Source: Puia sp. (GTDB lineage: Bacteria; Bacteroidota; Bacteroidia; Chitinophagales; Chitinophagaceae). From it: a DNA stretch of 64,000 bases. Shown one piece after another: positions 12,820 to 55,501 of this stretch. Within the stretch, counting starts at the first letter, position 1; every line of letters starts with the position of its first letter. A program made the position numbers and the translations under genes. The stretch is taken from contig DATMGS010000019.1 of assembly GCA_035555335.1 (NCBI GenBank), positions 77,500 through 141,499 on the forward strand, given 5' to 3'. Below the pieces are notes generated by a model. The model was given only the letters and a program-made list of their open reading frames with translations, had not been told where the DNA came from and searched no databases.

Positions 12820-12906
12820 GTCGGCTCTTATTTCCGGAGACAGACTGAAGTCTGTCTCCGGTCGGCTCTCATGATGGGCCTTCGGCCAACGGACCTGTGG
12901 TCCGTT
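12820..12906. repeat. Cluster of palindromic REP-like hairpins between convergent genes
   Basis: Perfect 12-bp inverted repeat CCGGAGACAGAC-TGAA-GTCTGTCTCCGG (12834-12861) flanked by direct repeats GTCGGCTCT (12820, 12861); GGCCTTCGGCC (12877-12887); AACGGACC-TGT-GGTCCGTT (12888-12906). Confidence 0.7.
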
Positions 12907-16723: not shown

Positions 16724-16832
16724 AAATAGATTATTGTGCAAATATTTTAATACACCGGGCGGATTGATTAATAAAGATACGTTTTCCGGGAATCGCCGGT
16801 TGCCTGAAAGAGGCAAAACAATAAAATCGTCG

Positions 16833-24236: not shown

Positions 24237-24689
24237 CGGCCCCCCGCCCAACCCCCGCCAAAAATTCTGCAAATTTTTTTCCTCCTTTTCTTGCAAACTC
24301 GTCGTTTTCTTTCTATTTTTATGCCCTTATACCTCCATCCACGAAAAGTGTCCCTTCCTGACACATGCAGTACCCAATATTCCTTTATCTTTTTTGTGTA
24401 TATGTTGACGTTAGTTAATACTGATTATCGTCCCTGACACCTGTATTCAGACCAGGATCAGCGAGCGTAATTTGTACATTATGTGCTTATAGGGCCGCTT
24501 TGCGCCTATCCGATCCAATTCACCTTCGAAAGCTTTTTATTAATCCACTTTGACTATGGTTTACCTGAAGCGAACCCTGATTCGCTGGCTGAAGGTTCAT
24601 CATTAGCCGGTTTATGCTAATGGACCCAATGCCAGTGAGCCGGAGGCGCACCCCCTAACCCCCTTCAATTAATCAATTCTGTAGTGAAC

Positions 24690-25850
24690 ATGAAAAAGCT
24701 TTACTCTTTAACAACCCTCTCGCTCGCCCTCACCCTTTTAATTAACGGAGCTTCTGCCCAGACTTACACCAGTACTTATACGGCGGTGCGTAACGGCAGC
24801 TGGCACACCGCTTCCGGTGTTAACGTATGGGACCCCAACGGCGAACCCTCCAACGATTGCAAAAATTGTAAGATCGTCATCAACCCCGGCATTACCATCA
24901 CCCTGAACGCAGATGTTCTGCTGGAACAGTCGTCGACCCTCATCATCGGAACGGCCTCCTCCAGCGATGCCGCCGCCGTGCTGAGCGTTGCCGGCTCCAC
25001 CGGAACGAATTGGAGCACGGCCTACAATGTCATTATAATGAACGATGGCAGCAGTCCGCAAAACTCTCTTGTGATCGGCAGCAGCAGTTCCATGGTCGAT
25101 GCAACGGGCATCAGCAGCCAATTCGACGGGGTTTTTACGGCTTACTCGAGCCTTGGCGTGACCTCTTATTATAAACAGGTTGGTAAAGGAGCTATCGCCT
25201 TTAACCAAACCACCGCCACCAACACCGGTACTGGCAATCAGGCCCCCGCTACCTTGACGGGACCCGTATCGCTTACCGCCGACGGTACCCTGCCCATCGT
25301 CTTATTGGAATTTACCGCTACCCTGAATAATAAGGAAGTAGACCTGGCCTGGACCACAGCCCAGGAATCGAATAGCGATCATTTCGCCATCCAACGGAGC
25401 GCAAACGCTGGCTCCAGCTGGCAGGCGATAGGAACCGTAGCTGCTAAAGGCAACTCTTCCGTAGCCACCAATTATTCTTTCACCGACGCCAATGCCCCCT
25501 CCGGCACCAGCGAATACCGCCTGCAGGCCGTTGACAAGGATGGGAAATACACTTATTCCGAGATCAGAACGACCCGCAACGGACTGATCGGAAGCGTCAG
25601 CGTATTCCCCAACCCCGCTAAAGACTATGTCAATATCACCCTCGGCAGCAGCTCTACTGCAACGGGTAACCTGAGCATCCGCCTGATCAACCAGGCCGGA
25701 CAGCTGCTGGTAGACAAGAAAGTGACCAATGCAGGCGGAACGACCGTCTCCCTCCCCGTAAGCAGCTACCCTCCCGGTAATTACCTGATCCAGGTAACGG
25801 GCCAGGACGGAACACGACAGATCAGCAAAGTCCTGATCTCAAGACAATAA
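24690..25850 (+). CDS. T9SS type A sorting domain protein (G8-like N-terminus)
   Basis: Signal peptide; LPIVLLEFTA...LAWTTAQESNSDHF Ig-like module; VFPNPA...YPPGNYLIQV C-terminal domain. Confidence 0.88.
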   Translation: MKKLYSLTTLSLALTLLINGASAQTYTSTYTAVRNGSWHTASGVNVWDPNGEPSNDCKNCKIVINPGITITLNADVLLEQSSTLIIGTASSSDAAAVLSVAGSTGTNWSTAYNVIIMNDGSSPQNSLVIGSSSSMVDATGISSQFDGVFTAYSSLGVTSYYKQVGKGAIAFNQTTATNTGTGNQAPATLTGPVSLTADGTLPIVLLEFTATLNNKEVDLAWTTAQESNSDHFAIQRSANAGSSWQAIGTVAAKGNSSVATNYSFTDANAPSGTSEYRLQAVDKDGKYTYSEIRTTRNGLIGSVSVFPNPAKDYVNITLGSSSTATGNLSIRLINQAGQLLVDKKVTNAGGTTVSLPVSSYPPGNYLIQVTGQDGTRQISKVLISRQ

Positions 25851-41302: not shown

Positions 41303-42004
41303 GTGAAGGCAAGAAACGTTTTTCTGGTAGTGTTGCTTATTATCGTGGCTGATCAATCGCTGAAGATCTGGGTAAAGACCCATATGCCCCTTAGTCATCC
41401 CCTGGAAATTTACCGGGAGCCGGTGTCTAAGTATGACAATGGGATCAAGCTGCTGGGTAATAAAGGGCAGATCTACTTTGTGGAAAACGAGGGCATGGCC
41501 TGGGGCTGGAAATTCGGGGGCGCCCTCGGTAAGATCGCGCTGACCCTGTTCCGCCTCGTAGCGGTAGTCTTCGGCGTTTATTATATCCATACGGTCATTA
41601 AAAGGCGATATCACCGGGGATTCATTATCTGTGCAGCCCTGATCTTTGCCGGCGCGCTGGGCAACCTGCTCGACAGCATGTTCTATGGCCTGATCTTCGA
41701 AGAGAGCACCTTCGATCACGTCGCAAAAATGTTTCCTCATACGGGATACACCAGCTTCCTGCACGGGCGCGTGGTGGACATGTTATACTTCCCCCTGATA
41801 AAAACGCATTATCCTCATTGGATGCCTTTTGTCGGAGGCGATGAATTCGAATTCTTCAGTCCTGTCTTCAATATCGCCGACGCCTCTATCTCTGTCGGTG
41901 TGATCGCCATCCTCTTATTCCAAAAGAAATTCTTCCACAAAGAACCGGGCAGCGAAACGGCGCCCGTCGAGGGCAAGGCCAATGTAAATACGGTGAGCGT
42001 TTAA
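41303..42004 (+). CDS. lspA: Lipoprotein signal peptidase II
   Basis: ENEGMAWG, GALGNLLD, GRVVDML, VFNIADA. Confidence 0.95.
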   Translation: MKARNVFLVVLLIIVADQSLKIWVKTHMPLSHPLEIYREPVSKYDNGIKLLGNKGQIYFVENEGMAWGWKFGGALGKIALTLFRLVAVVFGVYYIHTVIKRRYHRGFIICAALIFAGALGNLLDSMFYGLIFEESTFDHVAKMFPHTGYTSFLHGRVVDMLYFPLIKTHYPHWMPFVGGDEFEFFSPVFNIADASISVGVIAILLFQKKFFHKEPGSETAPVEGKANVNTVSV

Positions 42005-43341
42005 CCGCCGTATTGGCGGACATCCAAAATAACTTTATCGGGCCGCAAGGTAATTAAAGGCTTTAGCTCCGGGATCTGCCCTGTCGGGCTGATCTGGAAT
42101 TTTGTAAAAAATGCATACAGGAAAAAAGACATCTCCGCCATAGCGAAATTGTTGCCGATGCAGAGCCGGGGTCCGGCGCCAAAGGGGAAGAAATTCTTCG
42201 GTTTCTTTTCTTTGGCATTCTCCGTCAGGAACCTTTCGGGATGGAAGGCAGACTCGTCGTCCCAATATTCTTTGTCCCTGTGTAAGCCATAAAAGAACGA
42301 TAAGATGATCGTGCCGCTGGGAAAGGAATATTCTCCGAACCGGTCGTCTTTCAGCGCGACCCTATCCGTCATCCAGGCTGCCGGATACAGCCGCATGCCT
42401 TCATTGATGACGGCGGCTATATACTCGTCTTTTACACTGTCCTGAATGGACCGGGCCTCCATCGAAGCCCTTAATTTTTTGACCACCTCCGGCTCCGATG
42501 CCAGGGCGTATAGCAGCCAGCTAAGCGTATTGGCGACGGTCTCATGTCCCGCAAAGATCAATACCAGGATCTGGTCGATGAGCTGCTCTTCGGGTATCGG
42601 CAGGCCGCTGTCTTCATATCTTGTATGCAGGAGAATGTCCAGCAGGTCGCTGAAGGCGTCCTTACTGGCCCGGCGCTCTTCTATGATGCCTTTCAGAATG
42701 GCTCTCATTCTCGCCGACTTTTGGAGGTTGCGCTTGTCCGCATGGTTGAAGGGATAGAAGAGCCTCCTGACGGGTTGATTGATCTCCTTGATATAAAAAT
42801 CCTGCACTTCGCTGAAGGTCCGGCTTAATTCCGTCATCGTATCGGAAGAGAGATGGATGGTAAACAGGGAGCTGATGACAATATTAAACGCCAGTTGATG
42901 CACCAGGGGATAGATATCGATACTGGCTCCGGTGGGAAAGGTGGACAGGGATTTTTCAATGGAGTCGATCATGATGCCATACAGACCCTGTATTTTTTCC
43001 CGGTGAAAGCCAGGTTGTACGAGCCGACGGTGTGTCAACCAGTCTTCTCCATTGGAAAAGAGAAATCCTTTTCCAAAATATTTGGCGGCCCTCTCGGCTG
43101 TCAGCGATGATTTATGATAGTTACTGTGGTTCTCCTTGAGGACATAGTTGATGAAGGCCGGGTCCTGGGTCAGAATGAGGTGGTATTTCCGCAGGGTGGC
43201 TACGGAATAGGTGCCGGAAAACTTAGCCATATTCAGGGAGACGAATTTGATCGGGTTGGACAAAAACCGGTAAGATCGCAGGATCGATTGGAAGGCAGAA
43301 TAGCCGGCGGGTAAATGATAGGTTTTATTTTCGGTATTCAT
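42001..43341 (-). CDS. Cytochrome P450
   Basis: I-helix AGHETV, EGMR (ExxR), FHPERF, FGAGPRLCIG heme motif. Confidence 0.96.
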   Translation of the reverse strand: MNTENKTYHLPAGYSAFQSILRSYRFLSNPIKFVSLNMAKFSGTYSVATLRKYHLILTQDPAFINYVLKENHSNYHKSSLTAERAAKYFGKGFLFSNGEDWLTHRRLVQPGFHREKIQGLYGIMIDSIEKSLSTFPTGASIDIYPLVHQLAFNIVISSLFTIHLSSDTMTELSRTFSEVQDFYIKEINQPVRRLFYPFNHADKRNLQKSARMRAILKGIIEERRASKDAFSDLLDILLHTRYEDSGLPIPEEQLIDQILVLIFAGHETVANTLSWLLYALASEPEVVKKLRASMEARSIQDSVKDEYIAAVINEGMRLYPAAWMTDRVALKDDRFGEYSFPSGTIILSFFYGLHRDKEYWDDESAFHPERFLTENAKEKKPKNFFPFGAGPRLCIGNNFAMAEMSFFLYAFFTKFQISPTGQIPELKPLITLRPDKVILDVRQYGG

Positions 43342-43480: not shown

Positions 43481-46213
43481 TTATTTCGAAAATTTTACCA
43501 TTTTCTCACTGATCATTTTATCGGCATACTGGATTTGCAGCACGTAAGTACCATTGGTCAGCCCCCCCAATCCATAAAGAGAGAGCCCATTGAGGCCCTG
43601 CGATACAGGAGCTTTTTCGCGTCGGACCACCCGTCCGTACATATCGGTCAGCCTGATCACCACCGTGCCATCACCCGGGGTCGTCAGCTCCATCGTGATA
43701 TGGTCGGAGAAAGGATTGACCACGCTCCTGATCTCGAAACCGATCCCCGCAGTGCCCAGCAGGACCAGGCTGCTATAACGGTGCGTATTGTCGCTGGTGA
43801 TATTGATGCGGTAATAGGATTGTGCGGCGGGCGGATTGGGGTCTGTGTAATGATACCCCGCACCCTGTCCGGCGCCGGCTGTACCTTTCACGAAGCCGAT
43901 GGACGTAAAATTGACACCATCGTCACTACGCTCGACGATATAACCGACATCGGCCGTCTCATCGGCGCTTACCCATTGCAGCGCACTCAACCCTTCCCGT
44001 ACCTGTCCGCGAAAAGAGATCAGCGTAGTAGGCAGCACGATCATACAATTGACGGCAAGTACGATCTTGGGCGATAGGGTTATAAAAGAACAACTACTGC
44101 TGCTTAAATTGGCAGTGGTGCTGGCAACGGTGATCCGGTACATAAGATAGGTATTGACTGCGTTGAGCCGGAAATAGCGGGTAATGATATATTCATACTG
44201 ACCGGTCGCTGAATTATACACCGGTACAGCGCTACCCGATGCGGCGGCTCCCGTCGTATCGACCCCGACGGTCACCCAGGTGGTCCCCCCGTCCGTGCTT
44301 TTCTCCATCTTCCATTCCGTATAGTTGGAAAAATAGGAAATGACCTTAAAACGGACCGTATCGTCCGCGCCCTGGCAAAGGGTATCGGGTTTGTTAGGCG
44401 TCAGCACCATTTGAGGCGAACAGCTGGCTACGCCGATGTCATCGATGGCCCAGTCATTACCACCGCCACCGGGGGCATTGTTCCGGATGCTGATAACCAT
44501 CGTAGTCTGGGTCGCGCCCGTCAGGAAAGTAAACCCTTTCTGTACCCACTGGCCGCTATATTGTATATTCCCCGTGGTATAATAATCATACCCGTTCACA
44601 TTAAAGGTCAGGTTGGGGTATACGCCCGAAGAGTCATGGGTGGTGGAATTCGTAGGGATATAACCCGAACTGCCGGATCCGACGCCATTCGAGTCACATC
44701 CGCAGCGGGAACACATATTGCGGAACCAGCCGCTATACTGGTAGTACGTATTCGGACATAGATTATAGACGGTGTCCAGGAAAGCTGTATCCGTCCGGTA
44801 AGCGGAGTTGACCACAACCATATAACCACCCGTCTTGCCCGAGTTGTCATCCGTTGCAGGATTACCCGCGGTAGGACTGGCCGCTCCGGTATGGTCGCCG
44901 ATAATATCCCATACACCGAATATCCGGTGGGAAGGGCTCTGGGAATTGTCCGGCTTGGCCCAGGTATTCAGGATCGAATAACCCTGCGCCGCCGTGGTGC
45001 CGCCGCTCGTATTATTGGATATGCCATAATAATAGTCATTCGGCATGCCCGCGCTGCTCGAAAAAGCGGAATAGGTATAATTGGACGGCACTTTATTGGA
45101 AGCCGCCCGGTCCTTGGTGCTCCCCGACCCGAAAGTGCCGCCGAATTCATTGATGATCGCATTGCTTCCAACCGTATTCGGGCACATGCCGTAATTCTTA
45201 AAGAGCATGATATCATCCTTCGGAAAGGTGACCTGGACCATGCCCGTAGTATTGTTGTATTGGAGCATGCCGGCACCCACACTCACCACGGTATTATACC
45301 CCACAGCCCCTACCACTACCCGGTAAGAAGCTATCATGATACAGGAGCCGCCGTAAAAACTAGGTTTGCTGGTATTGGCTAAGATCCCCCCGGCAGTGGC
45401 GGTAGCCCCGGATCCCAGGTTGATCGTGATGGCCGAGCCCGAGAGAGTACCCCCGTCCGCATCGGAGGCATCGGTAAATTGCTGGTATATTTTGCCTTCA
45501 TTCGTCAACACCCGGAGCGTACCGGCCTGATAGGTCGTATTGGCGGGGATATTATCGGTAAAGGAACAATCATAAGCTGAATTGGCTTTCACGACAATGG
45601 TAGCTCTAATCTCCAGGGTGTCTCCCGGCTCAATCGTACCCCCGGTGGTCCCTTTGGTAATATTTAAATAGCTTTTGCCGTAATCGACGGTAGGAACACC
45701 CGTCGTCAGATTGGTGATACAGATGTTGAACCCCCAGAGTCCTGTCGTAAAAGGCCCCGTTGAATTGGTATAGATCCGGATGTAATAGGTCGTACCTACC
45801 GTAAGACCAGCGCCGCCGATGTTCGTTAGCACATTGAGCGTATTCCCGCTCACACAGGCGAGGGAAGTCATGCTTGCACAGGTCCCTGAAAATAATTGGA
45901 TCCTTGCTCCTGCAGCACTAAGACTCCCTCCTAAACTGCTTAAAGTAATAGTGGGATAAGAACTGGTTGCCACAAATGAATACCATACGTCCGCGGAAGT
46001 AGCCGCACCGCAGTTCACGGCTATCCCCACACTGGCGGTGGCATTTTTTAAGGTGCCGGCTGTAGTCGTACAGGTGGTGCCGGAGGTGAGCGTAGAAGCA
46101 CCAGAGCAAAGGTCATTTGTTGGTTGTGCATAAGCCAGGTTGCTTACCAGGAAAAAGATCACTAAAGCAAGCAGGGCTTTGACTGTGCGTACAGAACAGA
46201 GCTTGGTTTTCAT
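43481..46213 (-). CDS. Large T9SS type A sorting domain surface protein (DUF11-like and lectin-like modules)
   Basis: Signal peptide; QPTNDLCSGA module; GGTIEPGDTLEI DUF11-like motif; DHT..GYMVVVN module; LTNGTYVLQI C-terminal domain. Confidence 0.82.
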   Translation of the reverse strand: MKTKLCSVRTVKALLALVIFFLVSNLAYAQPTNDLCSGASTLTSGTTCTTTAGTLKNATASVGIAVNCGAATSADVWYSFVATSSYPTITLSSLGGSLSAAGARIQLFSGTCASMTSLACVSGNTLNVLTNIGGAGLTVGTTYYIRIYTNSTGPFTTGLWGFNICITNLTTGVPTVDYGKSYLNITKGTTGGTIEPGDTLEIRATIVVKANSAYDCSFTDNIPANTTYQAGTLRVLTNEGKIYQQFTDASDADGGTLSGSAITINLGSGATATAGGILANTSKPSFYGGSCIMIASYRVVVGAVGYNTVVSVGAGMLQYNNTTGMVQVTFPKDDIMLFKNYGMCPNTVGSNAIINEFGGTFGSGSTKDRAASNKVPSNYTYSAFSSSAGMPNDYYYGISNNTSGGTTAAQGYSILNTWAKPDNSQSPSHRIFGVWDIIGDHTGAASPTAGNPATDDNSGKTGGYMVVVNSAYRTDTAFLDTVYNLCPNTYYQYSGWFRNMCSRCGCDSNGVGSGSSGYIPTNSTTHDSSGVYPNLTFNVNGYDYYTTGNIQYSGQWVQKGFTFLTGATQTTMVISIRNNAPGGGGNDWAIDDIGVASCSPQMVLTPNKPDTLCQGADDTVRFKVISYFSNYTEWKMEKSTDGGTTWVTVGVDTTGAAASGSAVPVYNSATGQYEYIITRYFRLNAVNTYLMYRITVASTTANLSSSSCSFITLSPKIVLAVNCMIVLPTTLISFRGQVREGLSALQWVSADETADVGYIVERSDDGVNFTSIGFVKGTAGAGQGAGYHYTDPNPPAAQSYYRINITSDNTHRYSSLVLLGTAGIGFEIRSVVNPFSDHITMELTTPGDGTVVIRLTDMYGRVVRREKAPVSQGLNGLSLYGLGGLTNGTYVLQIQYADKMISEKMVKFSK

Positions 46214-46446: not shown

Positions 46447-48231
46447 ATGAAAAGCAGACCAATTTATATTTGTTGTCTTTCGGCCTGCCTGTGCCTATCT
46501 CTGAATCTTTCTGCTCAAATGACCGTAACATATTATGGTCAGACTTTTAAAATCGACACTTTATACCCCGCCACCGGGTCAACGGGAATGAATACGCCCT
46601 GGGAGGTCGTTTATGGTCCGGACGATTCCTTATGGGTGACGGCAGCCCATGATTATAAGATCTGGAAGATCCATCCGGGGAATAAAGGAGTCCGTGAACT
46701 GCTGGATGTCAATGGCCTAAAAGACTTTACAAGCCCCGCCTCCTGGCCCCAGGGCGGGTTAATGGGCCTGGCTATACACCCCGCATTCTATTCGGGCAAG
46801 CCATGGGTCTATTTTGCGTATGTCTATCACCTGGTGGGTTGTAACACCGGCAGCAACCCCACCGGCAATCCGTTCTGCACCAACTGCGCCACTGGGTCCT
46901 GCAGCTTTAACACCAAAATCGTCCGTTACCAATATAATTTTGCGGATGGCTCCTTATCCTATATGAACGATGTGATCTCCGGGCTGAATGGGAGCACCGA
47001 TCATAATTCCGGCCGAATCCGGATCAGTCCGCTTACGGAGAGCGATGGGAAATATCATCTTTATTATACGATCGGGGATATGGGGGCGGGTAACCTGTCA
47101 AATGCCAACCGGCCTAATCATGCCCAGGATACCACTATCATAGAAGGAAAAGTATTAAGGCTGAATACGGAGCCGGATCTTTCATTGACTGGCAGTCAGC
47201 AATGGGTCCCGGGTGATAATCCCTTTCCGGAGGGCGCGGCCCCCTCCGCTAAAAGCCCTATATATTCTTTTGGTCACCGTAATCCCCAGGGGCTGGTCTT
47301 CGGCTCCGTGAACGGGGGCGCCTCCTATAATTTGTACAGCAGCGAGCATGGGGATAAGTCGGATGACGAGGTGAATATCATTTTACCCCATACCAATTAC
47401 GGCTGGCCAAAAGTAGCCGGCCTCTGCGATGATAATTATACTTCGACGAACGGGGATTCCATGTACCTGGCGAATAAATCCGTTATCAGTGAAAAGGGGT
47501 TTTGCGATACGACGCACACTACGTTGCAGGAGCCGATTTTCTCTTTTTATAACTGGAGCCGGGCTAATAATAAGACTTCGGGAGCGCAGGGAAATATGTA
47601 CTGGCCTACTATTGCCCCGTCCTCTATTGCCTTCTATGGACAGGGAGCTATCCCGGGCTGGAATTATTCCCTGCTGGTGCCTTCTCTGAAGAATGGTCTT
47701 TTCCGGTTAAAATTAAAACCGGACGGGCTCAGCATCGACAGTACGCAGTTGCCTACCGATACCCTCCATTATCTGCCGGGTTTTCGGTTACGGAATATCA
47801 CGGTGGCGCCTTCCGGAGATACGCTGTTTGTAGCGGTAGACAATTCCTGTTGTGCGATCGATGCTTCCGGAACGCTGGGCACGTCCGTATCCACCCCCCC
47901 GGATAAGGGGTTTATCCTGCGGATGGTGTATATGACGACCCTGGACCTGAAGGGGGATACAAATAAAATACTGCCGGAACCTACTCTGACCACCTGTAAG
48001 GTATATCCGAATCCAGCCCACAAGACCCTCTATGTGGAAGTCCCCCCGGGGGAGCGCCGGCCTCTGACAGCGGGTCTCTATGATATCACGGGCAGACTCC
48101 TTCTGCGGATGGAGACGGCCGACGATCATTGTTCTCTCGACGTTCATGCTCTTTTGCCCGGGATCTATGTTTTCCGGCTCCTGAATGGGTATGCGGTACC
48201 GTTGCTTACCGAGAAGATATTGATCGAATAA
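46447..48231 (+). CDS. PQQ-dependent sugar (glucose/sorbosone) dehydrogenase with T9SS sorting domain
   Basis: PWEVVYGPD, GGLMGLAIHP, HNSGR, YSFGHRNPQGL, SEHG..DDEVN, NYGWP; VYPNPA...LLPGIYVF C-terminal domain. Confidence 0.88.
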   Translation: MKSRPIYICCLSACLCLSLNLSAQMTVTYYGQTFKIDTLYPATGSTGMNTPWEVVYGPDDSLWVTAAHDYKIWKIHPGNKGVRELLDVNGLKDFTSPASWPQGGLMGLAIHPAFYSGKPWVYFAYVYHLVGCNTGSNPTGNPFCTNCATGSCSFNTKIVRYQYNFADGSLSYMNDVISGLNGSTDHNSGRIRISPLTESDGKYHLYYTIGDMGAGNLSNANRPNHAQDTTIIEGKVLRLNTEPDLSLTGSQQWVPGDNPFPEGAAPSAKSPIYSFGHRNPQGLVFGSVNGGASYNLYSSEHGDKSDDEVNIILPHTNYGWPKVAGLCDDNYTSTNGDSMYLANKSVISEKGFCDTTHTTLQEPIFSFYNWSRANNKTSGAQGNMYWPTIAPSSIAFYGQGAIPGWNYSLLVPSLKNGLFRLKLKPDGLSIDSTQLPTDTLHYLPGFRLRNITVAPSGDTLFVAVDNSCCAIDASGTLGTSVSTPPDKGFILRMVYMTTLDLKGDTNKILPEPTLTTCKVYPNPAHKTLYVEVPPGERRPLTAGLYDITGRLLLRMETADDHCSLDVHALLPGIYVFRLLNGYAVPLLTEKILIE

Positions 48232-48337: not shown

Positions 48338-48874
48338 ATGGTGTTATCGGCTATGATGGTCCTGCATCTTCTTTTTTTTATAGAGGTGGTTTGTTTTTTG
48401 GCGGGGTGCCTGTTTTGGCGAAAGCAGTGGCCGCTGCAATATAAGATGCTGGTCCTGTTGATGGGTTTAACGGTGTTGGTGGAACTGGCCGGCCGCATCC
48501 TGGGAATCCGGTACCACCAGAATGTCTGGCTGTACAATCTTTTCTTGCCGCTGGAGTCCGCTTCTTATATCTGCTTTTTCTACCTGGAATCAGCCCACCC
48601 GGCCATGAAGTGGCTGTATCGTTGTCTGCTGGCGGCGATCGTCCCGGCCCTGGTGATCACCTGGCTTAAACAGCCGCATTTTTTCATTTTTAATCAGTAT
48701 GGATATATTGCCGGCCTGTTCCTGCTATTGGTGGCGGCAGCATTGATCTATCTGGCAGAAATACCGCACTTGTATTTAGAAATAGTGAATACCATCGCCA
48801 ACATCTTTCTATACGGGGGCGTGACAGGCTGCTTCTTCACGGCCAGTCAGCCGGCCAAATTTACCACTTTGTAG
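48338..48874 (+). CDS. Hypothetical polytopic membrane protein, possibly internally deleted
   Basis: TAAATTTG promoter element at 48325-48332 supports the ATG at 48338; hydrophobic helices with NVWLYNLF motif. Confidence 0.6.
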   Translation: MVLSAMMVLHLLFFIEVVCFLAGCLFWRKQWPLQYKMLVLLMGLTVLVELAGRILGIRYHQNVWLYNLFLPLESASYICFFYLESAHPAMKWLYRCLLAAIVPALVITWLKQPHFFIFNQYGYIAGLFLLLVAAALIYLAEIPHLYLEIVNTIANIFLYGGVTGCFFTASQPAKFTTL

Positions 48875-49037
48875 TATTGCTCCTTTTATAGTGATCTTCT
48901 ACCTTTATCCCGATAAGAGCCACAGATATATAGTACCAGACCTGACCGCCTGTTCAGATCCTGTATACCCTGCCATAGACCTGCCTGGTTACTTTCCTCC
49001 ATTCAACGGCGAGCGGGAATAAATTAAATAACAATAC

Positions 49038-49646
49038 ATGCAACCAATTCTCTTTTTCTGGATAGCCTTTCTGGTCTTGCTGGCACTGATGGTGTTCCTG
49101 GACCAAAAGTTCTTTATGCTGCGGGACAGCAGCACAGCCCTGCCCAAGCCATATAGCTATGCCCGGGTGCAGCTGGCCTGGTGGACGCTGGTGGTGCTGT
49201 CATGCATCATTGCGATCCTGCTGGCGGGCAGTGCGATGCCTACGCTCGACAGCTCGACACTGATCCTGCTGGGGATTGCAGCGGGTACTACGGTGGCGGC
49301 CCGGCTGATCGATGTCTCCGACCATACCAATTCGGGTACCGGCCTGGTCAGCCAGAATTTCCCAGGCGAAAATTTCCTGTTGGATATTTTGTCCGATAAG
49401 AACGGGGTAAGCATTCATCGGCTGCAGTCGGTACTGATCAATATCATCTTCGGGGTCTGGTTCATCGCGCAGGTGCTCCGGCATTTGACGGGGGTGAACC
49501 CCTGCCTGCCAGGGGATGCAGATTGTTTAAAACACCCGCTTGATTTTATCATGCCGGTGATCAGTACGAATAACCTGATCCTGCTGGGGCTGAGCTCGGG
49601 GACTTATGCGGCGCTGAAGACCACGGAGAATAAGACGGCGGCATAG
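49038..49646 (+). CDS. Hypothetical membrane protein with internal duplication
   Basis: Two repeats: SYARVQ...MPTLDSSTLILLGIAAGT and SIHRLQ...MPVISTNNLILLGLSSGT. Confidence 0.8.
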   Translation: MQPILFFWIAFLVLLALMVFLDQKFFMLRDSSTALPKPYSYARVQLAWWTLVVLSCIIAILLAGSAMPTLDSSTLILLGIAAGTTVAARLIDVSDHTNSGTGLVSQNFPGENFLLDILSDKNGVSIHRLQSVLINIIFGVWFIAQVLRHLTGVNPCLPGDADCLKHPLDFIMPVISTNNLILLGLSSGTYAALKTTENKTAA

Positions 49647-49719
49647 GGGCGATAGATTATTTATTATTTTTTTATTATATATATTGAAGATATATTAGAT
49701 CTTTATTTAATCTAATTCT

Positions 49720-51822
49720 ATGGATCGAAAGGAGAACGACCTCACACATATCAGGTTTCGAAAGGATTTTTCCTATGCTAAGAAAACGCCCACTTTCGTC
49801 AGCAATGCGATCGGCGCCTCCGATGAGATAGCGAGATGGGTGCTCGATTGGAATGATGTCTTATATAAGGACGAACCCCATGCCCCCGCCCTGTGCACTC
49901 CTGTTATGAATAGATTGATTGGTGACGGCAATACCGGCGGCCCGGGCCCTGTTTTGATCAGGACGGATGCGCTGCTCTATACGACAGAGAGTGTGATCGT
50001 TTATTTCGAACAACGTTGTGCGCCGGAGAAGCGGCTTCTGCCGGCGGATGCCGCTAAGAGACAGGAAGTAGTGACTTTATATAATCTGTTTACCGGCCCC
50101 TTTGAAGGGAACGTATACGGGTATCTCTATGGACAGTTGCTCGCCAACCCGGGAGAAGCGCGGAGCTGGTTTACACAGGGCGTTCCCTTCGGGGAGAAAC
50201 TGCAGTATATGCTGTCGTTTGGCGCCCTGCGAAAAGAGCTGACCCGCGAATGGGGGCTGGCGGAGAAGCCGGCGGGAGAGAGGCTCGCCTATATTAAAAA
50301 AATATTCGGGGATGTGGATACGATACTGAGCGATGGCCGCAGATACCTGACGGGAGACCGGTTGACCATCGCCGATATTGCTTTCGCCGCTGTAGCAGCG
50401 CCGTTGCTCCTGCCCATTGAATTCGGGGGAGCAATAGGGGCGATCCACACGGTGCCCACAGAGATGCGCAGAGAAGTGGAAGAGCTTAGGGCGACCCCCG
50501 CAGGTCAGTATGTTTTGCTGCTCTACCAGGATGAGCGCCCCCTGCGGCGTAGCCGGAAAGATATCCCGAAGGACCCGGGCCCTTTGGGAAAGCTGGGTTT
50601 GCAGCTGGGGCTGGCGCTGGACCGGAAGAAGACAGGGCTTTTCTGTTTCCTGCAAAAGCACTTCCCCGTACTGAGGCTGGGAATAGTAGGGCTGGCGGCC
50701 GTCTGTAAGAATGACCTGCTGGTAGAAATGATGGAGCGGGATAATGATTTTACCGTGGAGGAGATCAATGGTAAGAAGATGGCCAATCAGAAGGGGGCCT
50801 TCTTTTTAGGTTTTGACCGCAATAACCCCCAGTTCGACCGGGAACGGAATTTTGTCCGCCGGACGGCGAAGAAAGAAGACATGGACCGGATCCGGTCTTT
50901 TATCCGGGATTCCTGCGAGCAGATCCTGCGACAGGCGAGATCTTATGGCAAGGTGGATGTGGCCGATTCGATGTGTTATACGGTATTGGTGCGTTTCATC
51001 GACGATTATTTCGGGGTGCCGCCTCCCACGGAGCCGATTATGCGACATTGGCTTCGCGTATTGTTCTATGACCTGTTCCTGAATTTTACCAATGACGCGG
51101 TCAAGCACCAGGAAGCTGTAAGCGCCGCCCTGGACAGAAGGGTGTGGGTCCTGCAGCTGATCAGGGACCGGCGGCGTGATCTGGATACGGGTAAGACTTT
51201 AGCCGATAATGTGTTGAACCGGATGATCCTGCTGCAAAGGGAGGAAGGCAACGGATGGTTCGACGATGAGACGATCCAGCGTAATATCGGGGGATTGATC
51301 ACGGGTATCCTGGAGACGACGAATAAGGCAGTAGTGCTGGTATTGGATGAACTGTTCAACCGGCCCGATGTGCTGAAGGGAGCGATCGATACGGCGCAGA
51401 TAAAGGATATGAAAAAGATGTATGGGTATGTGTCCGAGGCGCTGCGATTTAACCCCGCGCAGCCCGGAGTGATCCGGTATTGTGAGAGCGGGCAGGTGCT
51501 GAAAGGCAAGGGGACCAAACCATACCGGATCAAAGCAAAACGCAAGGTCTTCGCGCTGACGGCCTGCGCGATGATGGACCCGGCCGTATTCCCTGAGCCC
51601 CGGCAGTTCAACCCTCAGCGGGAGGCCGTCTATATGAACTACGGATACGCATTGCATGAGTGTTATGGTAAGTACATCAATGCGGTGACGATCTCCGAGT
51701 TTGTGGCGGCCGTGCTGCGTTTGCCCGGTATCCGGCGGGAGCCGGGATGGGCGGGGCGGGGGACGGGCCTGCATGTGGGACCGTTCTTTAACAATTTTGT
51801 AGTGCGATTCGATACCATTTAA
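49720..51822 (+). CDS. Glutathione S-transferase-fold / cytochrome P450 fusion protein
   Basis: GST-like N-terminal part (ARWVLDW...HAP; YLTGDRLTIADIAFAA); P450 C-terminal part with GILETT (I-helix), EALR, PRQFNP and YGYALHECYG (Cys codon at 51661). Confidence 0.85.
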   Translation: MDRKENDLTHIRFRKDFSYAKKTPTFVSNAIGASDEIARWVLDWNDVLYKDEPHAPALCTPVMNRLIGDGNTGGPGPVLIRTDALLYTTESVIVYFEQRCAPEKRLLPADAAKRQEVVTLYNLFTGPFEGNVYGYLYGQLLANPGEARSWFTQGVPFGEKLQYMLSFGALRKELTREWGLAEKPAGERLAYIKKIFGDVDTILSDGRRYLTGDRLTIADIAFAAVAAPLLLPIEFGGAIGAIHTVPTEMRREVEELRATPAGQYVLLLYQDERPLRRSRKDIPKDPGPLGKLGLQLGLALDRKKTGLFCFLQKHFPVLRLGIVGLAAVCKNDLLVEMMERDNDFTVEEINGKKMANQKGAFFLGFDRNNPQFDRERNFVRRTAKKEDMDRIRSFIRDSCEQILRQARSYGKVDVADSMCYTVLVRFIDDYFGVPPPTEPIMRHWLRVLFYDLFLNFTNDAVKHQEAVSAALDRRVWVLQLIRDRRRDLDTGKTLADNVLNRMILLQREEGNGWFDDETIQRNIGGLITGILETTNKAVVLVLDELFNRPDVLKGAIDTAQIKDMKKMYGYVSEALRFNPAQPGVIRYCESGQVLKGKGTKPYRIKAKRKVFALTACAMMDPAVFPEPRQFNPQREAVYMNYGYALHECYGKYINAVTISEFVAAVLRLPGIRREPGWAGRGTGLHVGPFFNNFVVRFDTI

Positions 51823-51833
51823 ACCAATATTTC

Positions 51834-53096
51834 ATGACGCATCAACATCCACTGACGCTTGTTACGCCCGTGAAAGACGGGGAACATGATAGCCTGCATA
51901 GCTTGCTCATGCAGATACGGGCGGATGTGCAGGCCGGTATCCCCCAGTCTTTCGAGAGCCTGGGCACGATCCACTATGCCCGTTGGATATTGCTGGAACC
52001 CAAAGATGCCGATGGCAACGTCGAGACGGATGTGGGCGTACGGTTGGTTTTCTCCTCCAACTATGACGGAGACGAGGATGTTCATCTGACCGGATTGGCC
52101 AATCATTGCGCCGTTTTCATCGATCAGCTCTACGGGCATTGCGAGGGATATCCTGCCCCGGCCAGCCGGACGGTAGAGAATCGTAAACAATATTTAGCGA
52201 AGTGGCGGGTGAAGGAGTCCGCCTTCTTTGTAGGCGCGCCGGGCAGGACCCTGCCGCAGATCCGCCAGGAGAACGAGCTGCGCAATTACGTCTGGACCCG
52301 GATCAATCAGGGCGACTGGAAGGGAAAGTCGGCCCGGGAGATCCACCAGGTCCTGAAGCAGGACGTATTGGATAAACCCGGATTTCAATGGGCGCGGCAA
52401 TCTATAACCATACCGGGTATCCGGTGGCTGGGCATGGTCCTGCTGGGACTGATCCTGCTGATCCTTCTGCCGGTCATCATCATCTGGATCCTGCTGTTGC
52501 ACTTCCTCTTCGAACGGACCGATGAACCGCTGGGACTGACACCCAGCCAGGTGAGCGGAGCGCATGTCAAAGAGCTGGAAGAGTATGAGGACCTCGCCAA
52601 TCAGAATCAGTTTACACAGGTGTTGATCATGAAACCGGGCATGATGCGGCTGATCACACTGAAAGGGCTGATGTTGTTTGCGAAGGCGCTGATCAGCTTT
52701 CTCTTTGTGAATGGCAAGCTCATGGGGATACCTACGATCCATTTTGCCCGCTGGGTAATGATCGACAATCAGAAGAGGATGTTGTTCTTCAGCAATTTCG
52801 ACGGGAGCTGGCAGCAATACCTGGGCGATTTTATCGATAAGTCGGGATGGGGACTGACGGGGATCTGGAGTAATACCATCAAGTTCCCGCGCACAAAATT
52901 TCTCTTTACCGGCGGCGCTTATGATGAGGAACACTTTCTGGCCTGGAGCCGTTATTTCCAGGTGCCGACTGCCGTCTGGTATTGTGCATATCCGCGTCTG
53001 TCGATCAAGAATGTCATCAACAATTCCTATATCCGCAATGAGCTGTTCCGGGATCTGAGCGAAGAGGAGGCGAGGAATTTCTTACAGCGGTTCTGA
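51834..53096 (+). CDS. Hypothetical protein with duplicated TIH[YF]ARW...SN[YF]DG domain and central TM helix
   Basis: Domain 1 GTIHYARW...FSSNYDG, domain 2 PTIHFARW...FFSNFDG, separated by WLGMVLLGLILLILLPVIIIWILLLHFLF. Confidence 0.85.
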   Translation: MTHQHPLTLVTPVKDGEHDSLHSLLMQIRADVQAGIPQSFESLGTIHYARWILLEPKDADGNVETDVGVRLVFSSNYDGDEDVHLTGLANHCAVFIDQLYGHCEGYPAPASRTVENRKQYLAKWRVKESAFFVGAPGRTLPQIRQENELRNYVWTRINQGDWKGKSAREIHQVLKQDVLDKPGFQWARQSITIPGIRWLGMVLLGLILLILLPVIIIWILLLHFLFERTDEPLGLTPSQVSGAHVKELEEYEDLANQNQFTQVLIMKPGMMRLITLKGLMLFAKALISFLFVNGKLMGIPTIHFARWVMIDNQKRMLFFSNFDGSWQQYLGDFIDKSGWGLTGIWSNTIKFPRTKFLFTGGAYDEEHFLAWSRYFQVPTAVWYCAYPRLSIKNVINNSYIRNELFRDLSEEEARNFLQRF

Positions 53097-53139
53097 GGGC
53101 GCGGCGACGTCCACATTTTTAAAGGTTTAAATTTATTTT

Positions 53140-54549
53140 ATGGAAGAGACATTAGAGCTATCGGATATACAGGGATATATCATCAGGGGATACAAATACA
53201 TGCAGTATTCCCGGTATGCGGTGCTGCGGGTGACCGACGCCGTGGAAGCCCGAAAATTCCTGAAAGACCATGTGGACGAGGTGACGAATGTGACGCATCA
53301 TGCGAAAACGAATTGCCTGAATATCGCTTTTACCTGCGCCGGGCTGAATGCGCTGGGGTTGAAGAATTCCAACCTGGCTTATTTCACCCGGGAGTTCCGG
53401 GAGGGGATCACGTCGGCGCATCGTCAGCGGCTGCTGGGAGATACGGGAGACAGCGCTCCGGAGGCCTGGCGTTGGGGAGGACCCGATAACGAAGCCGTAC
53501 ATCTGTTGTTGATGGTCTTTGGGAAGGATAAAGAGACGGCATTGAGCTATTATACAAGGCTGCAGAAGGAATTTGCGCCGGGATTGGCGGAGGTATTGCA
53601 GATGGATGGACAGACTTTGCCGATGAACAGGGAGCATTTTGGTTTCCGGGATGGGATCTCGCAGCCGATTATCAAGGGGAGCGGACGTAAGGGGCCGGAG
53701 AATGATTATATCAATGCCGGGGAATTCCTGATGGGCTATAAGAATGAATACGACGTATACCCGGATACGCCGCTGCTGGGCGAGGACCAGGGGGAAAGCT
53801 TCCTGCTGCCTTTCGATGCGGCGGGCACGGGGAAGAAGGATCTGGGACGCAATGGCAGCTATATGGTGATGCGGCAGCTGCAGCAGGATGTGAAGGCGTA
53901 TTGGGAGTTTATGAATGAGAAGACCAGGAATACGGATGGCTCTGTCAATGCGGAGGAAAGTACCAGGCTGGCTTCGAAGATAATGGGCCGCTGGCCCAGC
54001 GGGGCGCCGGTGGTGAAGTTCCCGGACAAGGACCCGGGGGGAGAATCGAATGACGATTATTTTACGTATTCGGATCTGGATAAGGAAGGGCTGAAATGCC
54101 CGTTTGGCTCCCACCTGCGCCGGACCAATCCCCGGGATAACTTCGAGGACAACGGACCGAAAGAGTCGATGCGGCTTACGCGGCGGCATCGGATCATGCG
54201 CCGGGCGAGGCTGTATGGGGATCCTTATATGGGATCTCCGTCGAACTATACGCCGGACGGGGAGGTCGGGCTAATCTTTACCTGCTTCAATACAGATATC
54301 TCACGGCAGTATGAGTTCATTCAATATACCTGGGCGAATTATCCTAAATTCAAAGAGCTGTATAATGACCCGGACCCGGTGTGCGGAGTGAAACATGACC
54401 CCGGACCGGGAGTGGAGCAGAACTTTACGATACAGGCGGAGCCGGTGAATAAATATGTGACGGGGTTGCAGCGGTTTGTAACGGTGAGAGGTGGAGCCTA
54501 TTTCTTTTTCCCTTCCGTCACAACCATCACCTACTTAAGCACCTTATAA
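53140..54549 (+). CDS. Dye-decolorizing (DyP-type) heme peroxidase, no signal peptide
   Basis: DIQG, EHFGFRDGISQP (catalytic Asp), GSYMVMRQLQQ, GRWPSG, CPFGSHLRRTNPR (proximal His), IMRR (distal Arg), GGAYFFFPS. Confidence 0.93.
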   Translation: MEETLELSDIQGYIIRGYKYMQYSRYAVLRVTDAVEARKFLKDHVDEVTNVTHHAKTNCLNIAFTCAGLNALGLKNSNLAYFTREFREGITSAHRQRLLGDTGDSAPEAWRWGGPDNEAVHLLLMVFGKDKETALSYYTRLQKEFAPGLAEVLQMDGQTLPMNREHFGFRDGISQPIIKGSGRKGPENDYINAGEFLMGYKNEYDVYPDTPLLGEDQGESFLLPFDAAGTGKKDLGRNGSYMVMRQLQQDVKAYWEFMNEKTRNTDGSVNAEESTRLASKIMGRWPSGAPVVKFPDKDPGGESNDDYFTYSDLDKEGLKCPFGSHLRRTNPRDNFEDNGPKESMRLTRRHRIMRRARLYGDPYMGSPSNYTPDGEVGLIFTCFNTDISRQYEFIQYTWANYPKFKELYNDPDPVCGVKHDPGPGVEQNFTIQAEPVNKYVTGLQRFVTVRGGAYFFFPSVTTITYLSTL

Positions 54550-54567
54550 CAACTAAAAAATCTATTC

Positions 54568-55005
54568 ATGAGTCCTGACACCATGTTCGAACTAACCTCC
54601 CTGTTTGCCGGAATCGGCTGGATCGCCCTTCTTTTTGTGAGCCCCTACTGGCCCGGCTTCGACAAATTCCTGATCGGCGTGATCATTGCCTTGCTGGCTT
54701 GTGTCTATACCTGGTTGAATTTCTCCAACTTCAGCCCGGATATCCTGAAGAATTTCAGCTCGCTGGAAGGAGTGATGAAACTGTTCCAGATCCCCGAACT
54801 GGTGGTGGCCGCCTGGGTCCATATCATGGCCTTCGATCTTTTAACCGCCGTCTGGATAAAGAAGAATTCCCTGCAACTGGGGATCGGGCATGGCTGGATC
54901 ATACTTTCCCTGATCTTTTCCTGCCTTTTCGGGCCATTGGGTTATCTTATCTATCTGCTGACCCGCTGGATCAGGACGAAAAACTATTTTTCTACGAATT
55001 TTTGA
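54568..55005 (+). CDS. ABA4-like / DUF4281 membrane protein
   Basis: AWVHIMAFDL and FGPLGYLIY motifs; four TM helices. Confidence 0.85.
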   Translation: MSPDTMFELTSLFAGIGWIALLFVSPYWPGFDKFLIGVIIALLACVYTWLNFSNFSPDILKNFSSLEGVMKLFQIPELVVAAWVHIMAFDLLTAVWIKKNSLQLGIGHGWIILSLIFSCLFGPLGYLIYLLTRWIRTKNYFSTNF

Positions 55006-55183
55006 CCGTAGAAGGACATAAAACGCCGTCAGGCGCGTTATTAATGCTTCCATTCTGTGAGATAAACGATTGAATAAATGAGTGTTTGACGGTTGAACAA
55101 ATGATTGTTGAACTTGTTTAATAAAATGACACGAGGGTTGCTGCCAGATGATACAAAGGAAGAATTAACTAACACGATAGAAC

Positions 55184-55435
55184 ATGCAACTTGTCAACGA
55201 CGCGAGCGGGGTGCCCCACCCTGAAATTAAGTGTACGGTATGTGGAGTGGCTTTGTACGCGACGGATTGGGGTAGTTTCGAAGTGACCTATCATTGTTCC
55301 TCCGCAGAAGCGAGGTTCTGGGATTTCGACCGTGGAACACCTGATCTGACCCGGGCCAAAGAACATTGGGATAAATCCAAACAGGAAATATTGCTGGATC
55401 GCAGCGAGGAGAAGAAGCTGGACGCGACAGGATAG
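55184..55435 (+). CDS. Small hypothetical protein with possible zinc-ribbon ligands
   Basis: 83 aa; CTVCG and YHCSS; A-rich start context. Confidence 0.6.
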   Translation: MQLVNDASGVPHPEIKCTVCGVALYATDWGSFEVTYHCSSAEARFWDFDRGTPDLTRAKEHWDKSKQEILLDRSEEKKLDATG

Positions 55436-55501
55436 ATCTCGCCCCGGCCCCCTCTTCTCTTTGCGACCATCACAGAATGGCTCCGCGATTACTCACCGCG
55501 A

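Follow-up and report, generated by a model that had tools for sequence, protein, structure and literature searches.

Gene content and boundaries of the locus

The window analysed here is a 64,000-nucleotide stretch of a Puia sp. genome (assembly GCA_035555335.1, contig DATMGS010000019.1, positions 77,500 to 141,499 of the forward strand), and our subject is a run of five genes, g1-g5, at its positions 49038-55005. Four of them, g2-g5, are one conserved operon, which encodes a fusion of glutathione S-transferase (GST) and cytochrome P450, a previously unnamed barrel protein, a dye-decolourising peroxidase (DyP) and an ABA4-like protein. The barrel protein and the DyP form the core of a module found in several bacterial phyla, for which we tentatively propose a role in the oxidation of acyl lipids at the membrane. 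The features of the locus are the following.

49038-49646, + strand: g1, 202 aa, with several hydrophobic segments and no family match; adjoins the operon but lies outside it.
49647-49719, + strand: AT-rich intergenic stretch directly 5' of g2, probable promoter region and left edge of the conserved unit.
49720-51822, + strand: g2, GST-P450 fusion, 700 aa; GST fold at about aa 1-290, P450 domain at about aa 300-700.
51834-53096, + strand: g3, the DyP partner, 420 aa; tandem ferredoxin-like (ABM/Dabb-type) barrel in the predicted model.
52425-52508, + strand: hydrophobic helix-kink-helix within g3 (aa 198-225, LGMVLLGLILLILLPVIIIWILLLHFLF), a probable monotopic hairpin anchor.
53140-54549, + strand: g4, class-V (C/D-type) DyP peroxidase, 469 aa, cytoplasmic.
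54568-55005, + strand: g5, ABA4-like (DUF4281) protein, 145 aa, PF14108.

The initial annotation had described five co-oriented open reading frames (ORFs) at these positions, the last four separated by 11, 43 and 18 bp, and had assigned to the cluster a GST-P450 fusion, a duplicated protein, a DyP and an ABA4-like protein, with no ferredoxin, reductase, transporter or regulator. All of this was borne out. The gaps g1-g2, g2-g3, g3-g4 and g4-g5 measure 73, 11, 43 and 18 bp, the domain assignments agree with Pfam and NCBIfam matches, and the two halves of g3 match each other by BLASTP (E = 7e-7), as expected of an internal duplication. Neither a ferredoxin, reductase, transporter nor regulator gene lies inside the cluster, and Pfam scans of the larger ORFs found no ferredoxin or reductase across the whole 64 kb.

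The closest homologues are in metagenome-assembled genomes of Puia sp. (Chitinophagaceae), at 92% identity. When the window is aligned to a 92%-identical sister Puia genome, positions 48368-49705 remain unaligned and a conserved block extends over 49706-55436, beginning 14 bp 5' of the g2 start codon; in the two sister loci the alignment starts at 49706 (L005) and 49716 (L006). Since g1 has no homologue in 84 related loci (tblastn) and lies within the unaligned stretch, the unit is g2-g5 (49720-55005), and g1, which was rejected as a member of the system on these grounds, is a neighbour in a variable stretch. The AT-rich stretch at 49647-49719 is the likely promoter region of the operon; a promoter and terminator scan with the sigma-70 consensus, which does not cover Bacteroidota promoters, found sites no commoner than in shuffled DNA.

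Several further observations concern the surroundings of the operon. Where the window has the variable stretch of about 1.3 kb upstream of the operon (48368-49705), L005 holds a different segment of 0.8 kb. Just 3' of g5, at 55184-55435 and within the block aligned to the sister loci, there is an 83-aa Cys-containing ORF whose product is 78-84% identical to its counterparts in the two closest Puia loci and has no match in the other loci. The G+C content of the operon (window 50001-54000) is 0.54-0.55 against about 0.50 in the flanks, and its GC skew, +0.15 to +0.17, is stronger than that of the flanks; together with the differing flanks seen in other genomes, this shift may mark a cassette that moves between genomes.

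Conservation and fusion of g3, DyP and P450

We surveyed 80 loci from different species, each with a g3 relative and together the best 80 of at least 579. The loci were searched with the window proteins and all their ORFs were clustered; 44 of them, referred to below as full-flank loci, have at least 5 kb upstream and at least 7 kb downstream. g3 and DyP are an obligate pair and the core of the module: a class-V DyP gene lies directly 3' of g3 in 78 of the 80 loci, both exceptions end at a contig edge, and DyP is present in every full-flank locus (44/44). A P450 gene adjoins the pair in Bacteroidota, Planctomycetota, Armatimonadota, Actinomycetota and Pseudomonadota. Reverse look-ups from distant GST-P450 proteins led back to the same arrangement, all three adjoining g3; two of these loci include the DyP gene, and the contig of the third ends inside g3.

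The association is also seen within single polypeptides. Several g3-family members of 840-1070 aa have a C-terminal DyP domain, and a tblastn search of plasmids found double and triple fusions.

Novosphingobium aromaticivorans DSM 12444 plasmid pNL2 (L089, 445320-449651): WP_011907039.1, 1443 aa, comprising P450 (residues 55-411), g3 (441-925) and DyP (933-1441).
Sulfitobacter plasmid pSpoCB-1 (L088): 1620 aa, P450-g3-DyP, with the same layout as the N. aromaticivorans protein.
Rhizobium leguminosarum plasmid (L090, 21952-24882): 976 aa, g3-DyP fusion.

The domain order of the triple fusions is the gene order of the window (P450, g3, DyP). Collectively, the fusions are strong grounds for regarding P450, g3 and DyP as parts of one complex or pathway. 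The full quartet of GST-P450, g3, DyP and ABA4-like genes recurs, in two gene orders and amid unrelated flanks, in other genomes of Puia, in Ginsengibacter, Segetibacter, the cultured Danxiaibacter flavus and a Gemmataceae (Planctomycetota) genome, and the recurrence of this arrangement with unrelated flanks in other genera is far beyond chance. That the genes are unrelated and merely stand side by side is hardly credible in view of their adjacency across several phyla, their differing orders and flanks, and the double and triple fusions; chance adjacency is refuted for g2-g5 by this recurrence and by the fusions, and holds for g1 only. Recurrent co-occurrence or fusion had been named beforehand as the check on the five-gene system, and the outcome divides it, with g2-g5 confirmed and g1 dropped.

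The triple fusions have neighbours of their own. In each case the gene before it encodes a TPR protein of about 550 aa; the two TPR proteins are homologous, and one is annotated as SARP family. A RES-Xre toxin-antitoxin pair lies 3' of the Novosphingobium gene. The Rhizobium fusion is flanked by genes for a CHAT-TPR protein, nucleases, an EEP-family protein and a restriction-modification pair. We rejected the TPR protein as a universal component, since its homology is confined to the two alphaproteobacterial plasmids, it bears a weak resemblance to the cyclase-TPR proteins described below and the window does not contain it.

g4 is a class-V DyP with conserved catalytic residues

g4 matches DyP_N (PF21105, 39.8 bits) and Dyp_perox_C (PF20628, 26.4 bits), both above the cut-off, and passes TIGR01413 with 105.8 bits (cut-off 100.5). 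Its best solved relative is DrDyP of Deinococcus radiodurans (8RE2/8RE3), with E = 1e-49 over the full length. The motif G168-F-R-D171-G172, the proximal His325 and the distal Arg354 are present, and D171, H325 and R354 are kept in 98-100% of 69 g3-linked DyPs. By fold, motif and catalytic residues g4 is assigned to class V and looks active; no signal or Tat motif was found in its sequence. The physiological roles and substrates of the DyP family are unclear, and class-V members oxidise alkenes and beta-carotene (PMC8197335). For DrDyP, too, the physiological substrate is unknown, as its authors stress (PMC10820274).

g3 is predicted to be a tandem ABM-type barrel with a membrane segment

The partner of DyP has gone unnamed. 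g3 has no sequence match in Pfam, NCBIfam or PDB, and each of the source names listed for its more than 1000 homologues is 'hypothetical protein', yet the family comprises 2356 clusters at 50% identity (representative search, E ≤ 1e-3). The two halves of the duplication, N (about aa 1-190) and C (about aa 230-420), both contain the motif TIH[YF]ARW...F.SN.DG. An AlphaFold2 model built from a 100-sequence alignment reached a predicted local distance difference test (pLDDT) score of 96 and a predicted template-modelling (pTM) score of 0.92, the single-sequence prediction giving only pLDDT 46. In the model, the two ferredoxin-like halves pack into one alpha+beta barrel. Foldseek matched it at E 2e-4 to 7e-4 to two tandem ABM proteins, 9LTX and 9LMN, and also to many single ABM/Dabb domains, which places the predicted structure of g3 in the ABM/dimeric alpha+beta barrel superfamily at the level of fold; no ABM Pfam model matches. 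At one locus (L086:4705-6341) g3 is split in swapped order, with a C-half-like ORF (326 aa), then an N-half-like ORF (211 aa), followed by DyP and GST-P450, an arrangement that fits two domains assembling into one barrel. A degenerate DyP paralogue was also considered for g3 and rejected, no DyP structure being among the top 50 Foldseek matches.

A helical insertion between the halves holds a hydrophobic segment of about 28 residues, modelled as two short helices (residues 198-210 and 212-225). In 98 of 100 g3 homologues a strongly hydrophobic stretch of 19 residues is present, in 97 at the same alignment position; the sequence of the segment is not conserved, and many of the examples printed have a central Pro. 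Because both halves form one barrel, we read the segment as a re-entrant, monotopic anchor, and in the model it is probably a membrane-anchoring hairpin whose topology we infer. Near-invariant residues of the family include H47, R50, D78, C103, E252, H303, W307, Y329, F333, D335, P352 and R373. The near-invariant polar residues suggest that g3 holds a catalytic or cofactor site and is therefore more than a tether.

The ABM fold is also common to the IsdG haem oxygenases. An IsdG-like ABM protein acting with an EfeB-like DyP to degrade or de-metallate haem would make the locus one of haem or iron handling, and the Foldseek assignment of g3 together with the proposal that EfeB and YfeX are deferrochelatases (PMC8197335) could be read in this way. 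We consider it highly improbable. No iron transporter, Fur-type regulator or haem-uptake gene lies nearby, g4 belongs to class V whereas EfeB is class I, and the P450, the membrane anchor, and the patatin and SRPBCC proteins of related loci (see below) would be left unexplained.

g2 joins a GST domain to a cytochrome P450

The N-terminal part of g2 matches GST_C_2 with 29.2 bits (cut-off 24.9) and the C-terminal part p450 (PF00067) with 52 bits (cut-off 22.8). Proteins of the family are about 700 aa long, and some sources name them 'cytochrome P450/glutathione S-transferase'. The Cys loop YGYALHEC648YG with the haem ligand Cys648, the ExxR motif E573-A-L-R576 and the Pfam match identify the C-terminal domain, by sequence, as a cytochrome P450; the I-helix pair is E532-T533. 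The Cys ligand and ExxR are conserved in the g2 family, and the I-helix pair varies across the wider DyP-linked P450 family (E-P, D-T, and P-T in the triple fusions). Those of the listed top PDB matches of the window P450 that have a specific name are ordinary bacterial P450s (CalO2, PikC, YjiB and similar).

Although the GST domain has diverged strongly, its fold is complete, with weak PDB matches to both halves. It contains the glutathione-site motifs cis-Pro P77-V-L and E90-S91; the cis-Pro is kept in nearly all members of the family and the E/D-S pair in most. A thioredoxin-like N domain, a glutathione site and a helical GST_C domain can all be recognised, and on these sequence features the N-terminal domain is classified as a GST.

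The window contains a second P450, unrelated to that of g2 and 7 kb upstream (42001-43341, - strand). It is a canonical enzyme of 446 aa that scores 241 bits in Pfam and stands alone, with neither a ferredoxin nor a reductase gene next to it.

A catalase-related protein takes the place of P450 in other lineages

Among the 44 full-flank loci, the second haem enzyme is P450 in 13 and a protein that we call c2 in 28, both together in none and neither in three; the mutual exclusion is significant by Fisher's test (p = 1e-8, without phylogenetic correction). Thus, P450 or c2 adjoins or is fused to g3-DyP in 41 of the 44. c2 consists of an N-terminal catalase-related haem domain and a C-terminal SRPBCC lipid-binding domain. 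A profile of the haem domain matches the catalase-related peroxidase 3E4W of M. avium with E = 8e-12, true catalases matching more weakly. The distal His is near-invariant, and beyond the aligned part there is an invariant R-x-x-x-Y that resembles the proximal haem-ligand motif of catalases. Characterised small catalase-related haemoproteins, such as coral allene oxide synthase and the Anabaena, Acaryochloris and Fusarium proteins, act on fatty-acid hydroperoxides, usually beside a lipoxygenase.

Two further genes are frequent neighbours. In about 20 loci the gene immediately 5' of g3, in the same orientation, encodes a patatin phospholipase. A large protein (about 1700 aa) that combines Ser/Thr kinase (Pkinase), AAA_16 (STAND), GAF and adenylate/guanylate cyclase domains is encoded next to g3-DyP in 33 loci, in varying orientation. 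Coordinates of representative genes are as follows.

L041:4695-6254 (- strand), L003:6832-7848 and others: c2 gene; the haem domain is fused to, or followed by, SRPBCC/Polyketide_cyc2, and Pfam recognises the SRPBCC part only.
L040:4848-9914, L041:6475-11607 and 31 other loci: kinase-cyclase protein of about 1700 aa, in most cases with c2 alongside.

These associations bear on a view in which the module repairs or detoxifies peroxidised membrane lipids. The tethered DyP would reduce lipid hydroperoxides, the GST would add a thiol-dependent peroxidase, P450 or the catalase-related protein would consume organic hydroperoxides, and patatin, where present, would excise damaged acyl chains. DyP, a GST with an intact glutathione site and a catalase-related peroxidase can indeed all consume peroxide, the predicted complex is membrane-anchored, patatin often adjoins it, and OsmC, globin and DJ-1 genes lie near some loci. 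Nevertheless, we regard detoxification as unlikely: no OxyR-, OhrR- or PerR-type regulator is nearby and no partner supplying reductant to DyP is encoded. Moreover, c2 is accompanied by a cyclase protein, either the kinase-cyclase of about 1700 aa or a cyclase-TPR protein, in all 28 full-flank loci that carry it, and this company of large kinase/STAND/GAF/cyclase proteins suggests signalling rather than housekeeping. It also means that the self-contained system envisaged in the initial annotation does not hold in general, since most other lineages carry such large signalling proteins.

In about nine loci (e.g. L022:15660-19249), a SIR2_2-TIR protein (433 aa), an nSTAND1 NTPase (about 750 aa) and a second patatin are encoded within a few kb of g3-DyP, a set that resembles immune or conflict genes. 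The module could accordingly be imagined as an effector, in which a STAND, TPR or cyclase sensor triggers the haem enzymes and patatin to peroxidise the cell's own membrane, leading to abortive infection or programmed death. This would suit the company of the pair elsewhere, which comprises patatin, the Pkinase-AAA_16-GAF-cyclase protein, the SIR2-TIR and nSTAND1 set, the CHAT-TPR protein and endonucleases of the Rhizobium plasmid, and the SARP/TPR proteins before the triple fusions. However, in a search with PADLOC-DB v2 none of g1-g5 had a match, and in the other loci only patatin, SIR2-TIR and STAND proteins matched generic effector or NTPase models. The window copy has no sensor, NTPase or nuclease neighbour, and the association could reflect signalling and not immunity. 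A survey of 2.9 million viral contigs found the pair in just 4, each time in an ordinary g3-DyP-P450 arrangement, so there is no viral link. An immune role thus appears very unlikely.

g5 accompanies the GST-P450 form of the module

g5 matches PF14108 with 77.2 bits (cut-off 27) over model positions 1-127 of 127, and four hydrophobic segments can be seen by eye. The ABA4-like gene is an accessory of the GST-P450 form of the module: it occurs in 13 of 79 loci, in 12 of them beside the P450 gene, the exception (L017) being cut upstream of g3, and in the full-flank loci carrying one it is always beside P450 (8/8).

ABA4 homologues act in neoxanthin and fucoxanthin formation, and most host lineages of the module are pigmented Bacteroidota. 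Both facts would suit the oxidation of carotenoids or other polyenes in the membrane to apocarotenoid-type products, in which DyP would cleave the chain, P450 would hydroxylate or epoxidise it and the ABA4-like protein would isomerise an epoxy-carotenoid. The predicted anchoring of the complex at the membrane is in keeping with this, as is the oxidation of beta-carotene by class-V DyPs, in one case without H2O2 (PMC10820274, PMC8197335). We nonetheless find a carotenoid substrate quite unlikely. Pfam scans of the larger window ORFs and the annotation of recurrent neighbour families revealed no carotenoid gene, patatin and the catalase-related protein point to acyl lipids, and the ABA4-like gene is present in just the minority of loci given above.

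A proposed acyl-lipid hydroperoxide relay

Taken together, the conserved unit, the obligate pair, the P450 fusion, the membrane segment, the intact active sites and the alternative haem enzyme are most economically read as a membrane-bound oxidative relay acting on acyl lipids. g2-g5 would then encode a complex of haem enzymes at the cytoplasmic side of the membrane, whose function we consider most likely to be a fatty-acyl hydroperoxide relay, a proposal held tentatively and at somewhat less than an even chance. How the complex sits in the membrane, that its substrate is a lipid, the sequence of the steps and each of the reactions are all inferred. In this proposal, g3 would tether the soluble DyP g4 to the membrane and probably also provide a binding or reaction site for the lipophilic substrate, and a second haem enzyme, the P450 domain of g2 here and the catalase-related protein elsewhere, would work directly with g3-DyP. 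The substrate would be an unsaturated acyl chain, which in many other loci patatin phospholipase may free. The g3-DyP pair would oxygenate the chain to a hydroperoxide; P450, or the mini-catalase in other lineages, would rearrange or further oxidise it, and the fused GST domain and the ABA4-like g5 would process the resulting peroxide or epoxide.

The initial annotation had already proposed that the genes form, rearrange or detoxify lipid hydroperoxides or epoxides. Lipid-peroxide chemistry has gained independent support from the patatin gene upstream of g3 in many loci and from the catalase-related-SRPBCC protein that replaces P450, the chemistry itself being deduced. A second argument, that a P450 encoded without redox partners uses peroxide, has proved weak. 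In P450s that transform peroxides independently of a partner, the acid-alcohol pair of the I-helix is lost or replaced, or the Cys loop has an insertion. E532-T533 of the window P450 is kept and its best structural relatives are ordinary bacterial mono-oxygenases; because this P450 looks O2-activating and the second P450 of the window also lacks a partner, little follows from the missing ferredoxin.

Several points weigh against the relay, and the P450 supplies the first of them. In the alignments its E532-T533 falls on the E-T pair of CalO2 and its Cys loop matches that of canonical P450s, with no insertion, and neither the CYP74 allene oxide synthases (AOS) and hydroperoxide lyases nor CYP8A/CYP5A, CYP152 or PpoA-type CYP is among the named top PDB matches listed; judged by these features, it looks like an ordinary O2-activating enzyme. 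In the GST domain, Ser34, at the catalytic position of helix 1, is not conserved; homologues have Ala, Thr, Leu or other residues there. The window contains no gene for patatin, the kinase-cyclase, the catalase-related protein, SIR2-TIR or nSTAND1, so that the patatin, catalase-related and cyclase genes bear on the window locus only through the homology of the core pair. Since they draw on related genomes and on our own ORF calls, the locus counts are not independent samples. We know of no DyP or ABM-fold protein that dioxygenates fatty acids. Finally, the lipids of Chitinophagaceae are mostly branched or mono-unsaturated, which leaves the natural substrate unclear.

A bolder version, possible but doubtful, makes the g3-DyP pair itself a new membrane-bound lipid oxygenase, a 'split cyclo-oxygenase', that feeds an eicosanoid-like pathway of bacteria, assembled from unrelated folds. 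A protein radical would arise at the DyP haem and pass to an invariant Tyr or Trp of the membrane-embedded g3 (e.g. Y329, W307 or W382), g3 would oxygenate an acyl chain taken from the bilayer, and P450 or the mini-catalase would convert the hydroperoxide to a signalling lipid. The signal might be read by the SRPBCC/GAF-cyclase/kinase apparatus in many bacteria, or be used by immune-type STAND/TIR modules.

Comparison with known oxylipin and peroxidase systems

No recognised fatty-acid dioxygenase, that is, neither a cyclo-oxygenase (COX)-like haem peroxidase nor a lipoxygenase (LOX), was found in g1-g5, in the other window ORFs scanned or among the recurrent neighbours; therefore the module is not a member of the oxylipin synthase systems and could only be a functional analogue of them. 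Every enzyme family involved is known, and by analogy the design logic appears to be that of the dioxygenase (DOX)-CYP fusions, the COX cascade and the LOX-catalase pairs, with unrelated folds. If the pair is a new type of lipid oxygenase, it stands further from anything known.

The fusion of a haem dioxygenase to a self-sufficient P450 is an established fungal oxylipin design (PMC13049297). With the fungal and oomycete DOX-CYP enzymes (PpoA, linoleate diol synthases, 8-/9-DOX-AOS; CYP5619) and the animal COX enzymes that feed prostacyclin and thromboxane synthases (PGIS/TXS), the module shares the coupling of a haem peroxidase-type enzyme to a P450, the lack of a redox partner encoded nearby and the existence of natural single-polypeptide fusions. 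The animal COX cascade also has a phospholipase upstream, a place that patatin could take in many loci, and GST-fold enzymes downstream in its prostaglandin branch. By contrast, the peroxidase of the module is a DyP, of ferredoxin-like fold, and not of the COX/animal haem peroxidase fold; there is an obligatory extra ABM-fold membrane protein, and the order is P450-g3-DyP. The window P450 keeps the acid-alcohol pair and lies outside those CYP families, and the oxygenase role in the module is a proposal.

Pairs and fusions of LOX with catalase-related proteins (coral AOS-LOX, the Anabaena and Acaryochloris mini-catalase-LOX proteins and M. avium 3E4W) resemble the c2 form, in which a catalase-related domain stands beside a pair in what would be the position of the oxygenase. 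The module differs from them in having g3-DyP in place of a lipoxygenase and in the fusion of the catalase-related domain to SRPBCC, and the window has P450 instead of the catalase-related protein. A bacterial precedent is the oleate diol synthase operon of Pseudomonas aeruginosa, which encodes a 10S-dioxygenase and a 7,10-diol synthase of the di-haem cytochrome c peroxidase family. These adjacent peroxidase-family haem enzymes make and then isomerise a fatty-acid hydroperoxide, yielding signalling oxylipins. Unlike the module, they are periplasmic c-type di-haem enzymes; they have no sequence or fold relation to it, and the system has no ABM, P450, GST or ABA4-like component.

g4 shares the fold, motif and catalytic residues of the class-V DyPs (DrDyP 8RE2/8RE3, AnaPX 5C2I, DyP2 4G2C and fungal DyPs) and is a member of that class. 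Characterised class-V DyPs have been studied as isolated proteins with dyes, and neither PMC10820274 nor PMC8197335 reports a partner protein, whereas g4 has an obligate partner, the predicted membrane protein g3. The best structural matches of g3, the tandem ABM proteins of polyketide pathways (the Abx(+)O decarboxylase 9LTX and WhiE-ORFI 9LMN), have the same tandem barrel, but their identity to g3 is 8-11% and the TM-scores are 0.33-0.58. g3 further differs from them in its helical insertion of about 100 residues with the predicted membrane hairpin, in its conserved residues and in its genomic context. We found no description of a g3-like DyP partner, a P450-DyP fusion or the g2-g5 gene set in the open-access literature.

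In 25 years of work on DyP peroxidases, they have been treated mostly as oxidisers of dyes and lignin. The recognition that a large branch of class-V DyPs has an obligate, probably membrane-anchored partner turns the question of their role into a direct experiment, and the natural P450-g3-DyP fusions, together with the mutually exclusive P450 and catalase-related partners, point to lipid-hydroperoxide chemistry and indicate which assays to use. If the relay is real, the COX/DOX-P450 and LOX-catalase oxylipin pathways would have a non-homologous counterpart that is widespread in bacteria; the relay would also give a function to a bacterial ABA4-like protein and to the GST-P450 fusion, and would offer new self-contained oxidative biocatalysts. 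Should the split cyclo-oxygenase exist, class-V DyPs would gain a long-sought physiological role.

Other genes of the window

The remainder of the window consists of housekeeping genes and genes for substrates of the type IX secretion system (T9SS). Secreted proteins are encoded at 8386-12219, 12905-16816, 24684-25850, 43481-46213 and 46447-48231. They comprise two subtilase-GEVED proteins of about 1300 aa, a GSDH-like protein and a smaller one, all with Por_Secre_tail sorting domains, and a 910-aa protein with a T9SS-associated galactose-binding-like domain. Such a set of secreted proteins is typical of Chitinophagaceae.

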